Shown here one piece after another: positions 23,547 through 31,091 of a DNA stretch of 64,000 nt. The stretch's first letter is position 1; each line of letters opens with the position of its first letter. The position numbers and the translations under genes are program-made. This DNA is from Podarcis liolepis (taxonomy: Eukaryota). Where the stretch lies: NCBI GenBank assembly GCA_965112155.1, contig OZ218102.1; one strand, 5' to 3'. The notes beneath the pieces are model-generated. The model was not told the DNA's origin. It did not search any database and saw only the letters and a list, made by a program, of their open reading frames with translations.

Positions 23547-24013
23547 CTGAAGTGAAAAGCAAAAATTAAGAATAATTGAGCTCTATTACCACAGGGTGGC
23601 TAACAGTCTGCAGGTCTTTAAGTGATCTTTAACCAGAATATTACATGGAACTATACGGCTGTTTCAATATACTAACTGTTTTTTCCCCTTTTTTAAAAAT
23701 TGAAATATTCCAGTGGTGACATTTTAATTCTGTCTTTTAAGATTTGGAGAATGGGTTCATTATTAGCACAGTGGCTGCACTAGGTTGCCTTTAGTACAGA
23801 ATGTTGTTGCATGATGGCTGATAGGATTGAGATTCTCTCAGCATATGACATTCCTGCTCAAAGATCTGCACAGGCTGCTGCTTTGTTACTGGGCCAAGTT
23901 CAAGGATTTACTAATGGCATATAAAGTCTTTAACGGTTAGTGGCCATGGATTGCATTGCCCTAATGTGGTTATTTGACTGCTTTGATCTGCGGATCTTGC
24001 ACTTTTACAAGTA

Positions 24014-24909
24014 CCGTATTTTTTGCCCTATAGGACGCACTTTTTCCCCTCCAAAAATGAAGGGGAAATGTGTGTGCGTCCTATGGGGCGAATGCAGGCT
24101 TTCGCTGGAGCCTGGAGAGCGAGGGGGGTCGGTACACACCGACCTCTCTCGCTCTCCAGGCTTCAGGAAGCTATCCGCTAGCCGTGGGAGACCCAGCTCT
24201 CCCAGGGCTAGCGGAGAGCTTGCCTGCACCCAGAAGTTTGGGGCACGCTGAGCTCCGCACGCCCCAAGCTTCGGGATTAGCGCAGCGCTCCGCTAGCCGT
24301 GGGAGAGCAGCGTGGCTCTCCCAGGGCTAGCGGAGACCTTGCCGGCACCCAGAAGCTTGGGGCGCGCTGAGCTCCGCACGCCCCAAGCTTCGGGATTAGC
24401 GCAGCGCTCCGCTAGCCGTAGGAGAGCCGTGCAAAGTCACCCGGGTCTCCCGCGGCTAGCGGAGACCTTGCCGGCACCCAGAAGCTTGGGGCCGCTGAGC
24501 TCCGCACGCCCCAAGCTTCGGGATTAGCGCAGCGCTCCACTAGCCGCAGGAGAGCCGCGCGGCCTCTCCCAAGCTTTTTTTGGGGGGGGAAATAAAGGGG
24601 AAAAAATTGTTTTCCCCCCAGGTGCACCGCGCTAATTCCGAAGCTTGGGGTGTGCTGAGCTCCGCACGCCTCAAGCTTCGGGATTAGCACAGTGCTCCGC
24701 TAGCCGTGGGAGAGCCGCGCGGCTCTCCCGCGGCTAGCGGAGACCTTGCCGGCACCCAGAAGCTTGGGGCGCGCTGAGCTCAGCACACCCCAAGCTTCGG
24801 AATTAGCGCAGCGCACCTGGGGGGAAAATAATTTTCCCCCCTTTATTTCCCCCCAAAAAAACTAGGTGCGTCCTATGGGCTGGTGCGTCCTATGGGGTGA
24901 AAAATACGG
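24014..24909. mobile_element. Non-autonomous Tc2/pogo-like element with ~118-bp palindromic tandem repeats
   Basis: TIR CCGTATTTTT..CCC.ATAGGACGCAC at both ends, TA TSD. Confidence 0.88.
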
Positions 24910-25184
24910 TACCTAACAGTTGTTCCAATATCTTAGTGTGACAACACCTATACTAAATTTGAGCTCTACAAATTTGCAGTCTAGGTCTCCCGTCTTTGTG
25001 AATGTAAGAAAGAAGATAAGGAACGAAACAAGGAAGAAGGAAAGAGAAAAAGATTATGGTGCACATAATGAGTATTAGGCGCTATAATGAGAATAACTGC
25101 GTTATGCCAACGTTGGTTTTCTGAGCTATTTGCTTGATTTGCAAAGTGTGAAACAAACACTGAAAAGCATTAGCTGATACCTAC

Positions 25185-25287
25185 CATCCGAATCAATGCT
25201 GTTGAGAGCTGTAGGAGGGATGACAGAAACTTTGCAAAGGCCAAGCGGGCATTTGGTTGGTAACAAGTCTCTGCATGAGGTATGTAC
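25185..25287 (-). CDS. DGKD: DGKD exon 8 (C1b end)
   Basis: 103 nt, [34 protein letters not shown]. Confidence 0.96.
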
Positions 25288-25564
25288 CTGGGAGGAAAAT
25301 ATATTAGCTAAAGTTTTGCTTCTATTCAGGTGTTTTAATGAAGAAGAAATTCACAGGAATGGAAAGGAAAAGAAATATACACTGAAATCACAAACTAGCT
25401 TAATCTTGGGAGTCCAGTCCATGATCTGTGAAACACAGTGGTTACAAGTCCAAAATTAAACCACAGTTTCCAGTTGGGACACAACACAAAACCTGCGTAA
25501 GGAAGCCCACAAGGAAAGGAGCAGGGTGGGAGTTCCCAAAGCAGGGCCATTACATCTGAACAGG

Positions 25565-25931
25565 TGTGGGAAAATGATTGCTTGTACATAAGAGCATGAG
25601 CAGAGTTCTTATTATTGCAGAGTGATTTTACAGCACGAGATATTGCTAAGAGCATGATGAGCATGTGAACACCTCATGCTAGACTAATGATTGGCTCACG
25701 TAGCATAACACTCTCTTTGTCTGTGGGCAAAAGCAAGGTTACATTCCTTTGATTTGGTTACTTTTGAGTACCAGGCAGAGCAAGCGCAGTGCTGGAGGAG
25801 GGAGGATGATTTATTTCTTACTGCACACAATAAACGTTACGGCTGTAGCCAAAGCTTCTTCTTCAAGTCATCTTGGTGTGAGACTGATTTCTTACTGATT
25901 TTCTTACTGATGTCGAGCTGGATTCTCGACA
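25565..25931 (+). repeat. 5' LTR (367 bp)
   Basis: TGTGGG...TCGACA; AATAAA near 25829; no difference from the 3' LTR by eye. Confidence 0.97.
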
Positions 25932-25933
25932 AT

Positions 25934-25948
25934 TGGTGCCCCGTGTGA
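25934..25948 (+). other. Primer-binding site complementary to elongator tRNA-Met 3' end
   Basis: TGGTGCCCCGTGTGA, 2 nt after the LTR; reverse complement of ...UCACACGGGGCACCA (tRNA-Met-CAT as recalled). Confidence 0.85.
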
Positions 25949-26173
25949 CTGCCTTTGGACTCCACGTTGTTTCTCATCGTTCAGCGCTCACCACACGTCT
26001 TTCATCCGCTATGGATCCCGGTGAGTGCTCCCTTGGTACCCCGTGTATGTGATTCTGGATTACGTTAAGGACTTATCAGCACTCATCTCGCCCGGCAAGG
26101 GCTGCAGACGCGTCGTTCATCCACCTAGTGGATCCCTGGTGAGTGCTCCCAACCCCCCCTTTCTTTTGCCATT

Positions 26174-27181
26174 ATGGGGCAGTCTCTCTCTCCACCACAG
26201 AAAAAGTTTTTTGAAGACCTTAAATCTCTTTTGGCCAGCAACAGCCTTCTTGTCTCAGATGCTGATATCGTGTCTCTTATAGAAGCATTGGATACCCATT
26301 GCCCCTGGTTTTTTCCTCAGGAGGGGAATTGGCATTTAAAAGACTGGGAAAAAATAGGACAATTTTTCCAAAACCATCCTCAGATTGATGTCAACGTTTT
26401 GCATGCCTGCTGTAAGGTTTATAAGGCTATCTCAAGCTTAACTCCTACAAATCTCCTCCTGGCCGCTGCTTCAGCTCCTTTGCCCCCCCTCCCAATCCTC
26501 ATGCTGCCTTCAGAAGCACCGTCTTATCAGCCTCCTAAACAGGCAGACATTTTTTCTCCGGCTCCTGTCCTCCCTCCCCTGCATTCTTCGCATTCCACAC
26601 CCCCCATTTCCACTGCCCTCCAAGAGACTCCTCCTGCTGCTCCTCCGTTGCTTGCCTTTGATTCAGACAGTCCAACTCTCTCAGCCCCCGTCATGCTGAC
26701 CCAAACCGATGTTCTCGATGGGCTGACGGGAGGAGGCAATTTTCTTACCATTGCCCAACAGTTGGCCCTTGATCCTATGTATTGGGCAGCCACCACAGCC
26801 TCAGCCCAAGAGGCTCTGGCCTCTGTCCCTGATGACAGGAATGAGCGTGATGGCCGATGTGGAAGCATCAGACAGGGCCCTGCAAAGCCCTATGGACAAT
26901 TTGTTGATCGCTTGTATAATACCTTCAAGCGGCAAGTTCAGGACCTGGCAGCACAAGAACTGATTGTACGCCAGCTTGCATTTGATCATGCACATGAGGA
27001 CTGTAAGCAAGTGCTGCGCCTTCTAATGGCAACATCAAATATAGCCATTGCTGATATGCTTAAAGCCTGCCAGTCAGTGGGCACTGAGATGCACAAAGCT
27101 CATCTTTTAGCCACAGCCTGGTCCTCCACCGTGTCCCAAAATCCTGCTAAGGATAAAACCTGTTGGATTGACAATGGCTAA
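26174..27181 (+). CDS. gag: Betaretrovirus-like Gag, 335 aa (MA, Pro-rich spacer, partial CA; NC deleted)
   Basis: MGQSLS myristoylation motif, p10-like CPWF..EG.W..KDWEKIG, major homology region IRQGPAKPYGQFVDRL, CA end MLKACQSVG. Confidence 0.92.
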   Translation: MGQSLSPPQKKFFEDLKSLLASNSLLVSDADIVSLIEALDTHCPWFFPQEGNWHLKDWEKIGQFFQNHPQIDVNVLHACCKVYKAISSLTPTNLLLAAASAPLPPLPILMLPSEAPSYQPPKQADIFSPAPVLPPLHSSHSTPPISTALQETPPAAPPLLAFDSDSPTLSAPVMLTQTDVLDGLTGGGNFLTIAQQLALDPMYWAATTASAQEALASVPDDRNERDGRCGSIRQGPAKPYGQFVDRLYNTFKRQVQDLAAQELIVRQLAFDHAHEDCKQVLRLLMATSNIAIADMLKACQSVGTEMHKAHLLATAWSSTVSQNPAKDKTCWIDNG

Positions 27182-27467
27182 GGAAAAAATCCAGCGGACC
27201 TTACCCATTACGTGCCTGGGACACCAGCTGACAGCATCTGCAGTTACGCCTCAACTACAGTTCCCTGATCATTTTAAACTGGTGGATTTACAACAAATTC
27301 TTGGACAGTTGAATTGGATAAAGAGTTATTTGGACCTGCCCACCTCCACTCTGTCTCCACTATTTTCTGCCCTTAAGGGACACAAGAATCCAGCGGACAA
27401 GATCACAACCACCTCTGCAATGGAAGAGGCTCTTCCACAGCTGTTCCAGTGTTTCCTGGCACGCTGA
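27165..27467 (+). pseudogene. pol: pol remnant (end of RT palm plus thumb)
   Basis: GLTMAKEKIQ...DLQQILGQLNWIKSYLDLPTSTLSPLFSALKG resembles the betaretroviral RT thumb; no protease or YxDD. Confidence 0.85.
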
Positions 27468-28620
27468 AAGGCCATCTTCATCACTACTGCATTGGCCCCC
27501 CTTTTCCCTGGGAAGCCACTTCAACCACCAAACATCATTACAGTTTTGCTGCCTCCCAATAGCGACCATCCCATCTGTGTCATCACGCTTCATTGGGCTT
27601 GGACTTTTGACTCAGCAGTACAAGGAGCAATACATCAGACTTATTTACAGCAAATGGGCTCCTGTATCTGCAGAAATGGTTGTGTGACTTCTTCTGGATT
27701 GTGGTTTTTACATGCCAATAATCGAGCCACGAAATATCACACAGGTTGCTTGGAAGTGGCCATTGTACTAATTTACCATTCTCATCCTTATTGACATCAC
27801 TTGGATTTTACCCCCCAGATCTCTTCTTTTTTTCTCCTCCCTCAGGAGTCCTGCCCTATGATGTGTTCCCCTGAGCATGTACAGAGGGCTGTCTTGGAAC
27901 TATTGTGGACTCTTGGCAAGGGAGGGGGTGAAGGGATTTTAGTGTGTTCCAGTTGTTTCATTCTTGTGCTTTGGCATGGTTCCCGGACAGAAAGAAAGTT
28001 GCAATATGGTTCTTTAGCAAGGCCCGCGAATACAATGGGCTCTGTTCTCGACCTTGTTGCAATCTTTTTAGTTACAGCAAGCAGAATTTGCTTGGCTAGT
28101 GCTTTTAGCTGCTGAGAAAAATGATTTTTAAAAGCTTCTCGAAGCTTTGAGCCTTTTTTGGTGGTTGTATTCTAGCTTTCCAGTAAATGCTTCATTTAAG
28201 ATTAGCAATAATATGAAGGACAATCGTATAAGTTTATCACCTGTGTTTTGTTGCTTGCAGAAATAGTGTCTTATTGTTTTCGTTTTAATCATAATAGCAG
28301 TATATTTTTAGGTCATTATCCATATTGTAATTGGACCTATGAGTATGTTAATGGATCTTCTTGTTTTTTTTAATGTTACCACTATGAGTGATAGGCCGAA
28401 AGTCTCAGTTAATAATGTCATAACCTACATGACTTATGACCAACAGGCTGCGTGTATAGATTTTTATGTTTGGTTCAACTGGATGAGAAAGAGCAGTAAA
28501 TCTACATATTTGCTTCAATTTGATTTATGGTTATTCTGTGGCAAATTGGACCGAAGCTTTGTTTTTTAATTCTATCATCTTTGTTTTAAAAATAATTAAC
28601 AAACAAACAAACAAAAAAAG

Positions 28621-29073
28621 TCAGAAATGAGAGAAGTTGCTTTATAAACTTTTTATGCTTTAAATGTAATCCTTGCCTCTAAAGTTGGAATTTATGCCTT
28701 AATTCATTCTCATTGTTGTATGTATATAACTGATCAATCAACCAATATCTCTGCTACTATTGATTATATGGAACAAATGATAGCCCATAATCCTTTGAAT
28801 CCACCTGAAGGTTTTGATCCATGGGATTGGTTATTTTCTTGGTTACTTAATGGATTATGGTTAAGAAATTTATTATTGATTGTAATTGCATGTATTGTTG
28901 GTTTTATTATGTATTCAATGCTTGCTTTCTTTAATTCCCAATGTACTGCATGGTGGTTTCGACCACGGCCCACCACAGGGATTACAAGGGGAATTTATGT
29001 TGCAAAATATAAATGCTTAGGTAATGGGATTGCGATTCTGATTAATGGTCCCTCTTTTCCTCTTATAATATAA
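28621..29073 (+). pseudogene. env: env TM remnant, gamma-type
   Basis: SEMREVAL*TFYALNVILASKVGIYALIHSHCCMYITD is a decayed immunosuppressive domain plus CX6CC, followed by WDWLFSWL and a hydrophobic anchor. Confidence 0.8.
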
Positions 29074-29089
29074 ACAAGAAAAGAGGGCA
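29072..29089 (+). other. Polypurine tract
   Basis: AAACAAGAAAAGAGGGCA immediately before the 3' LTR. Confidence 0.85.
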
Positions 29090-29456
29090 TGTGGGAAAAT
29101 GATTGCTTGTACATAAGAGCATGAGCAGAGTTCTTATTATTGCAGAGTGATTTTACAGCACGAGATATTGCTAAGAGCATGATGAGCATGTGAACACCTC
29201 ATGCTAGACTAATGATTGGCTCACGTAGCATAACACTCTCTTTGTCTGTGGGCAAAAGCAAGGTTACATTCCTTTGATTTGGTTACTTTTGAGTACCAGG
29301 CAGAGCAAGCGCAGTGCTGGAGGAGGGAGGATGATTTATTTCTTACTGCACACAATAAACGTTACGGCTGTAGCCAAAGCTTCTTCTTCAAGTCATCTTG
29401 GTGTGAGACTGATTTCTTACTGATTTTCTTACTGATGTCGAGCTGGATTCTCGACA
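29090..29456 (+). repeat. 3' LTR (367 bp)
   Basis: Direct repeat of 25565-25931, followed by TSD AACAGG. Confidence 0.97.
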
Positions 29457-30590
29457 AACAGGCTTTAGCCCTGTAGTGTTTTGTTTGCGTGCATTTACAA
29501 ACCTGTGTGCATAACGCAGGATGAAATCGTTATATCAACCCTTAGTCTATCCAGCTCAAAGGAATATAAAATCAGTTCCCTTCTTACAATACTTGGGACA
29601 CTTGATTCTGAAAGTATCCTAAGAATACTGACTTATGGTTCCAGAGATTGGTAAAGAGTAGGTTTGTTAAACTGGAAACACTGATGAAAATGTAGGCGTA
29701 AACAAGAAATTCTACTGTCGACAAGAATAAATAATGAGAGCAGTACCTAAAACAACAGGCACAGAAAAACAACTGATCTTTCACAAAGGCAAAAGGTTTT
29801 TTCAAAAGTTTTGCAGTTAATTGCATATCATTTTCCTTAAATAATTCTGTGAACAACTATAAAACATCAGAGGCCAAATGGTTTATCTGCATATCTTACG
29901 CCTTTCTGGCTATTTGCTTACATTTCAAATACATTTTCCACACACACTCATGTGCATGTAGAATGCCAAGAAATTCATTATCCTTAGGATTTACACTTAA
30001 GAATCAGTTACGTATCCAAAATAATTCAGTGCTATTCTGCTTGACTGTCAAGGAAAGGCAGGCCTTGCCAAAATAATATACGGCTTGTTAATAAGCGATT
30101 CCCAGGATACAAGAAGAGCATATATTTAGGACTCTACATTCTGCATCAGAAAGATCTGTAATACATTTATTATTGCTTTCAGATGTGACCTTTATTTTCT
30201 GGCAAAGGACCAGTAAGCAAGCAATCTCTATTAATCTAATTCTGTTTATTCAACATAGTGAAATTTCTTTAGGCTGCTGTGGTAACATCATGAGAGATCA
30301 CTGACATTTCTACCCATCTTAGAATCAGTGGATAAAGAGCCTATAGATGGCTACACATTTTGCTATGCTTATCCACGACTATGTAAAAGACTGGTAATTG
30401 GCAAAAGCAGCATAAAATCTTTTAAAAATATCTAACAGCTGGCTTATTTTAGTTGAAATCTAATTAGCAAATAAATAAATACAGTGGGATGCCGCTGAAA
30501 CTTTCTCCTTACATAGTAGCATTATCAGAATACACAGGCACAGTGCAGAAAAGGGGAGTAAAATTGAACAGCGTTGCAACATTAACTGAC

Positions 30591-30716: not shown

Positions 30717-31091
30717 CTGCAAACAAGCAGAAAATAAATCACTTTCATTATAGGGCCGTTACTAGACTCTATGCCCTCTTTGAAATACCGAGCAACACTC
30801 ACCCTTCCCATTGCTTTATTATTATTAATATTTATTGAATTTGTATACCGCCCTATACCTGGAGGTCTCAGGGCAGCTCACAGAACAAAATCAAAATATA
30901 AAACCACAAAATATATAATCAAAATAAAAACAACAACCCAATAACACCCCCATACTTTAAAAGTAAGTATACATGCTCCTCTCTGAAGTCTCTAGAGAAT
31001 CTAGAAAATCTTAGCAGAAGCAGAGGTGTAAGTGAAATGCCTTCTATATGCCTGTTAACCTTCCCCACATGAGAAATGGCCTCATACATAC

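Follow-up and report, generated by a model that had tools for sequence, protein, structure and literature searches.

We describe an endogenous retrovirus (ERV) in a 64,000-nt stretch of Podarcis liolepis DNA (assembly GCA_965112155.1, contig OZ218102.1), hereafter called the window, to which all coordinates refer and which contains no N bases. The element is very probably a very young member of a long-lived class II ERV lineage that lacks its own enzymes and is mobilized in trans. The mobilization in trans is suggested by the structure of the element and by mosaic copies found elsewhere in the genome.

The two long terminal repeats (LTRs) match at 367 of 367 positions, run from TG to CA, and carry AATAAA at LTR position 265. 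They are flanked by a perfect 6-bp target-site duplication, and the primer-binding site (PBS) and the polypurine tract are in place (Table 1), as had been proposed in a first-pass annotation made from the sequence alone. The PBS of the window copy matches the 3′ end of tRNA-Met(CAT) over 15 nt, and 7 of 47 copies match over 18 nt. We also observed that the 18-nt stretch at 25934–25951 and its counterparts in sibling copies mostly match tRNA-Met over 15 of 18 nt, with three recurring variants, which is at odds with the tendency of reverse transcription to restore the match to this tRNA. The leader is likely to hold a packaging signal.

A Pfam scan of the interior matched only Gag_p10, Gag_p24_C, and the thumb of reverse transcriptase (RT), the latter with E = 1.7e-14. 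Upstream of the thumb remnant, nucleocapsid (NC), pro, and the RT core are gone, and downstream RNase H and integrase are gone; neither Pfam nor a block map against long relatives revealed any remainder of protease, RT core, RNase H, or integrase in the element. The env gene is represented by broken pieces only. The first-pass description of the genes as heavily decayed thus holds for pro, the pol core, and env, but not for gag, which is an uninterrupted frame of 335 amino acids; likewise, the block at 27794–28177, which had been read as env, is mostly a foreign LTR piece instead.

Table 1. Features of the element and their positions in the window
Feature	Position	Strand	Basis
5′ target-site duplication AACAGG	25559–25564	+	Single copy at the empty site, runs X1 and X3
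5′ LTR, 367 bp, subtype A, TG...CA, AATAAA at 25829	25565–25931	+	Direct LTR comparison
Primer-binding site, tRNA-Met(CAT)	25934–25948	+	Complementary to the 3′ end plus CCA; two tRNA-Met genes, same genome
Leader, with two donor-like GGTGAGT sites (26020, 26138) and two short upstream open reading frames	25949–26173	+	
Open truncated Gag, 335 amino acids, own ATG	26174–27181	+	Pfam Gag_p10 and Gag_p24_C
RT thumb remnant, out of frame with gag	27165–27433	+	Pfam RVT_thumb, block map
env remnant, 5′ part, internal deletion	27432–27793	+	83–98% to env of long relatives
Inner part (U3 side) of an LTR from an unrelated ~595-bp family, captured	27831–28164	−	87% to donor solo LTRs
env remnant, 3′ part (transmembrane tail); frameshifts, stops, one deletion	28178–29073	+	
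Polypurine tract, then CA	29076–29087	+	Identical tract precedes every 3′ LTR in the loci examined
3′ LTR, no difference from 5′ LTR	29090–29456	+	
3′ target-site duplication AACAGG	29457–29462	+	

The short lineage and the age of its insertions

A first look at the 1.57-Gb genome gave 403 candidate matches to the window LTR, and the 40 that were scored are 96–100% alike. Six of 30 LTR loci are solo LTRs with 6-bp duplications, the remainder being the ends of proviruses. For a 22-mer from the interior, 213 exact matches were found genome-wide. The 61 matching loci on contigs C1–C4 comprise 34 copies of the short element and 27 members of another family, and this share suggests that about 120 short copies carry the exact 22-mer. 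A set of 50 copies was compiled from those picked by the 22-mer, by the LTR, and by gag; one further locus (L132) was excluded because it proved not to be an element. All 50 have lost the NC-pro-RT core and the integrase C-terminal block, and the first deletion junction is common to 49 of them and the second to 42.

Most of these insertions carry nearly identical LTRs. Of the 43 LTR pairs that could be compared cleanly, 26 show no difference and 11 show one. The motif-picked sample, in which 6 of 34 copies lack a clean pair, yielded 28 pairs with 19 mismatches in 10,165 bp, and 24 of these 28 have perfect 6-bp duplications, every one distinct. The interiors are considerably more diverged: those of 14 A-type copies of ~3.9 kb are 3.1–7.4% apart, and the window interior differs by at least 4.3% from every one of these siblings. 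Its LTR is 0.5–4.6% from the sibling LTRs and identical to none. Because identical LTRs enclose diverged interiors, the lesions and the divergence must be older than each insertion. Together with the shared junctions, this supports the earlier proposals that the internal decay predates the insertion and that siblings with the same deletions exist.

Subtype A, the LTR subtype of the window, was found in 5 of the 34 sampled short copies, and subtype B, which is also the subtype of the long copies described below, in 27. The two types are not kept apart. The nearest neighbor of the window element switches between segments, with the foreign insert closest to B-type copies and matrix (MA) and LTR closest to A-type copies, and other mosaics combine A-type gag with a B-type LTR or an A-type LTR with open pol and env. 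Such mosaics fit co-packaging and template switching. A P. muralis RefSeq protein ends in the same TCWIDSG as the window Gag and, since it ends at the same junction, the short lineage occurs in more than one species.

The empty site, which the first-pass annotation had suggested looking for in other individuals, was found in two other samples. In run X1, a single contig of 1592 nt carries window positions 25000–25564 as record 138–702 and 29457–30352 as record 697–1592; in run X3, a single contig of 2837 nt likewise spans both flanks. In both contigs the flanks overlap by exactly 6 nt, that is, by a single copy of AACAGG. Contigs from runs X4 and X5 continue past 29457, which fits an empty site, with both flanks never on one record. 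Since the flanks of the two empty-site contigs differ from the window by only 0.55% and 0.92%, the insertion is missing from very close relatives, with the provisos that the species of these samples may differ and that contigs can drop a rare allele. At a wall-lizard rate of 1.98e-9 per site per year (PMC8760935), the absence of differences over 367 LTR positions sets the age of the window copy at no more than ~2 million years (95%), and the LTR pairs of the pooled sample give a mean age of ~0.5 million years, both being loose, upper-side figures. The window copy is very young, and from the identical LTRs we infer that the lineage is currently active.

Long relatives and the captured LTR piece

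A scan for integrase led to 16 long loci, 12 of which belong to this family. Two of the 12 have four long open frames (gag, pro, pol, and env), more have an open pol, and five have an env frame of 663 amino acids. In these relatives gag, pro, and pol occupy three overlapping frames, and the target duplication in the family is 6 bp. The view that a defective lineage was copied in trans by a helper, put forward in the first-pass annotation, is thus backed by intact cis signals, shared lesions, and relatives with open frames in the same genome. Two results weigh against it. No four-frame copy with the LTR subtype of the window was found in a search that was not exhaustive, and none of 21 matches to the A-type gag start is full length. 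The four-frame relatives have a B-type LTR that is only ~78–80% like the window LTR over part of its length; one copy with an A-type LTR has open pol and env frames. Two near-identical long copies (L043 and L044) sit on a small contig, within an array of a ~185-bp satellite, and share the same duplication; they were probably copied together with the array.

The Pol and Gag proteins of the family are most like beta-type proteins (RVT_thumb, Gag_p10, and two differing zinc knuckles). The best pol matches are turtle and Komodo dragon ERVs (51–54%), and the best match with a solved structure is 7sr6, which we take to be the RT of HERV-K. Betaretroviruses typically have a beta-type env and a Lys primer site, and in the strict genus Betaretrovirus a dUTPase precedes the protease. 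In this family, env is gamma-type (Pfam TLV_coat, with CXXC and CX6CC motifs) and the primer site is that of tRNA-Met, neither of which is typical of the genus, and pro of the long relatives gave a weak Pfam match to dUTPase at the expected place, below the cut-off (E = 0.079). By these features, the family is a class II (beta-like) ERV with a gamma-type env, so that the earlier suggestion of a beta-like helper is right for gag and pol but does not describe a typical betaretrovirus. Its assignment to squamates fares better: of 13 matching Gag proteins, the 11 that are named all come from Podarcis muralis or P. lilfordi, which supports a lacertid host. In RNA run X23, which carries another species label and of which 12% was read, 419 reads belong to the family, mostly on one strand; some family copies are transcribed in a related species, which is not evidence on the window locus.

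The block at 27794–28177 has no match to env. Its ~330-bp core is 87% like the inside of a ~595-bp TG...CA repeat and lies antisense, in place of part of env. The donor family (27 loci within L063–L122, for example L094; 489 first-look candidates) consists of young solo LTRs that are 97–98% alike, with 4-bp duplications at 15 of the 27 loci. Its TATA and AATAAA are on the opposite strand, and the captured part lies upstream of the donor TATA. With respect to the parent element of the donor, no close LTR pairs were present among 40 scored loci, and a primer-site pattern gave four matches, none with an interior. An inverted gag or a hidden gene was considered for the insert and rejected, as a six-frame search against the long copies, Pfam, a protein database, and Atlas returned nothing. 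The portion of run X23 that was read contained no splice joint between the leader donors and an acceptor-like site at the insert. Since the insert is also present in 3 of the 12 long copies, in which a 903-amino acid pol frame is kept and env is broken, its capture is likely to have occurred before, or apart from, the pol deletions.

The truncated Gag frame and competing explanations

The Gag frame encodes MA, a proline-rich spacer, and the C-terminal domain of capsid (CA), most of the CA N-terminal domain (NTD) having been lost in frame. It ends with the first cysteine of a zinc knuckle and a five-residue, out-of-frame tail, without NC, and the junction between gag and RT is out of frame. Among the 50 copies, the frame is open in 38 of the 41 that keep the start; the remaining nine are seven B-type copies without start and MA, and two (L101 and L102) left unscored for gag because their bounds are not clean. 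In all 37 open frames scored, the stop lies five residues past the junction. Further evidence comes from the 20 copies with an A-type start, in which all nine gag length variants, but only 18 of 68 elsewhere, are multiples of three (Fisher p = 3e-5), and in which ~300 gag variants include no stop where ~11 would be expected; pN/pS (the ratio of non-synonymous to synonymous variation) in gag is ~0.45. Although their MA is only ~80% like that of any long copy, it is free of stops and frameshifts in 20 of 20. Four distinct large deletions occur in gag, the frame being open in all; the commonest removes 321 nt, with 1 nt of microhomology.

We also counted private variants, that is, those left after removal of alleles seen in long or B-type copies, leaving out the proline-rich block. 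In gag there were 19 synonymous and 34 non-synonymous variants and no stops, and in the other frames 5 and 50, the latter including six stops (contrast with gag, Fisher p = 0.001). The filter preferentially strips synonymous changes, and the contrast between gag and the other frames is therefore the fairer test. Taken together, these data suggest selection during replication on translating the Gag frame, with no strict need for it, and recombination with helpers would account for part of the open-Gag signal.

A number of observations weigh against a role for this Gag. The seven copies that lack the gag ATG and MA have nevertheless spread, six of them having inserted with 0–1 LTR differences. 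The RT thumb remnant, out of frame with Gag, has a pN/pS of 0.35–0.38 and the B-type env tails one of 0.42, which argues that recombination with coding relatives imports a synonymous excess; A-type env remnants are near 1. Taken alone, private gag variants give a ratio of 0.62 (p = 0.065) and gag singletons one of 0.98. The A-type set was chosen by its intact gag start and thereby passed over one A copy that has a frameshift early on, and three of the large gag deletions show non-triplet gaps in nucleotide alignments and stay in frame only when nearby gaps are counted in. Regarding comparable proteins, several Podarcis Gag-like database entries have in-frame losses of CA-NTD, in a collection biased towards open frames, and P. 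muralis proteins P0004–P0011 represent a second defective lineage with in-frame CA-NTD loss, one zinc knuckle kept, and another junction.

On balance, we put the idea that the truncated Gag aids the mobilization of its lineage in cis only slightly below an even chance. The frame might instead be open only through refreshment by helper recombination and too little time to decay, the protein being idle and mobilization in trans still holding. We think this rather improbable, even though most of the synonymous excess resides in alleles that long or B-type copies also have (ratios of 0.42 in gag and 0.52 outside it) and the low thumb ratio, the near-neutral singletons, and the spread of copies without MA all fit it. 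Helper recombination is unable to supply in-frame internal deletions of four kinds, nor does it readily explain lesion-free MA at ~80% likeness to the long copies when, in the same period, the adjoining remnants acquired six private stops and numerous frameshifts. It is somewhat less probable again that uninterrupted translation is selected and not the protein, an early stop leading to nonsense-mediated decay or altering the fate of the unspliced RNA. Such a scenario would agree with the much clearer avoidance of stops and frameshifts than of missense changes, with deletion of MA in some copies and of CA-NTD in others, and with the constant position of the stop. However, private MA variants seen in several copies (11 synonymous versus 9, ratio 0.25) point to constraint at the protein level, and copies without the ATG, with their different translation layout, still spread.

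The source of the enzymes can also be questioned. That the helper is an exogenous or recently lost A-type virus, the short genomes spreading by co-infection of germ cells, would fit the failure to find a full-length A-type copy, the env frame kept in 5 of 12 long relatives, and the highly diverse interiors of copies whose LTRs are identical. We nevertheless regard this as unlikely, to about the same extent as selection on translation only, since 27 of 34 short copies carry the B-type LTR of the endogenous long copies, and A and B copies recombine, so that B-type machinery is likely able to handle A-type RNA. Finally, LTR identity could in general arise on an old provirus by assembly collapse or gene conversion, or reflect segmental duplicates. 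This explanation is largely refuted and highly improbable: the distance of the window LTR from all sibling LTRs speaks against collapse onto a family average, flanks and duplication are particular to each copy, and the exact empty site exists elsewhere with flanks only 0.5–0.9% different.

In the preferred reading, mobilization in trans by endogenous relatives, the short RNA would be transcribed from the 5′ LTR, packaged by helper Gag via the leader, and, as the mosaics suggest, co-packaged with helper RNA. tRNA-Met would then prime synthesis, and helper RT and integrase would copy and insert the product. Identical LTRs on interiors 3–7% apart suggest many such rounds, with repeated recombination with helpers, and the foreign LTR piece may have been captured by template switching in an ancestor with broken env and open pol. 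The open, NC-less Gag may have been kept because its translation would help these steps. A bolder and rather doubtful extension is that the element, as a parasite of a still-active lizard retrovirus, evolved a dedicated "adapter" Gag, made of matrix and the dimerizing domain of capsid, with the RNA-binding NC and CA-NTD lost on several independent occasions. Being produced in cis, this Gag might guide the short RNA to the places where helper particles assemble, or enter assembly together with helper Gag.

Surroundings, known systems, and significance

Elsewhere in the window, the GC-rich segment at 24011–24912 is bounded by 30-bp terminal inverted repeats (90%), contains ~119-bp palindromic units in an internal array, and looks like a non-autonomous DNA transposon. 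Positions 30815–30900 form the edge of a very high-copy repeat, with a depth thousands of times that of its flank. No usable Pfam match to a host gene was obtained for 29 long open reading frames elsewhere in the window, a search that may miss exons. In the wider genome, loci L053 and L054 represent a second young class II family. Its LTRs are longer (631 and 561 bp), it encodes a clear dUTPase (E = 3.6e-9) and an env without Pfam match, and its primer site is presumably that of tRNA-Trp. The integrase scan also showed many integrase-bearing frames of 1,200–1,300 amino acids that scored identically, which suggests that further LTR families are young and present in many copies. Class II-like integrases are abundant on contig C20.

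IAP elements are mammalian and largely env-less, unlike the lizard family with its gamma-type env. Mouse IAP IΔ1 nevertheless resembles the window element in being class II, in having an internal gag-pol deletion, and in needing Gag and Pol in trans, and its translated frame is reported to help retrotransposition in cis (PMC7411935). It differs in making a Gag-Pol fusion, whereas the lizard gag/RT junction is out of frame and the Gag lacks NC and most of CA-NTD. In cattle ERVK[2-1-LTR], mouse ETn/MusD, and koala recKoRV/KoRV, defective copies outnumber and recombine with competent ones, and the cattle ERVK D, ETn, and recKoRV elements hold a central retroelement piece between kept gag and env ends (PMC10924933, PMC6112702). 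For cattle, de novo insertions track with inherited competent copies, and the authors suggest cis effects of the kept ends (PMC10924933). The lizard short element matches this recKoRV/ETn/cattle-D pattern of a foreign central piece and kept ends, but its foreign piece is only ~330 bp, derives from an LTR, and is antisense. Cattle D elements are reported to lack intact open reading frames and recKoRVs to have highly disrupted ones, whereas the lizard Gag is long and open, with a measurable signal. A class II gag-pol with a gamma-type env is also found in PyERV of Python molurus and in type-D betaretroviruses (PMC3758190, PMC9967133); no protein named PyERV was among the 120 best pol matches, and the resemblance is one of layout. 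The Gag-like proteins of P. muralis and P. lilfordi (LOC144327482 and UniRef A0A670 entries), including the one that ends at the shared junction, belong to the same family. They are labeled only as uncharacterized or "ERV-K Gag-like," and no description of the element was found with them.

Trans-complemented defective ERVs are thus already known, recently active families with a defective partner having been described in mice, koala, and cattle, and it is the reptile member that is new. In the literature we found neither a lizard or squamate case of a recently active ERV with a defective partner nor a description of this family, although subscription papers, repeat libraries, and survey supplements may list it. 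The family extends the class II viruses of reptiles by one that combines a gamma-type env with a Met primer and, given the many assemblies and population data for wall lizards, provides polymorphic markers. It is also a natural test of the way in which an ERV invasion is taken over and brought to an end by defective copies, and of whether kept gag ends are selected for acting in cis. If the adapter Gag were true, the defective genome could outcompete its helper, and selection for the cis effect that has been proposed for IAP IΔ1, cattle D, and recKoRV would for the first time be supported at the sequence level, here in a wild reptile whose germ line is still being invaded.

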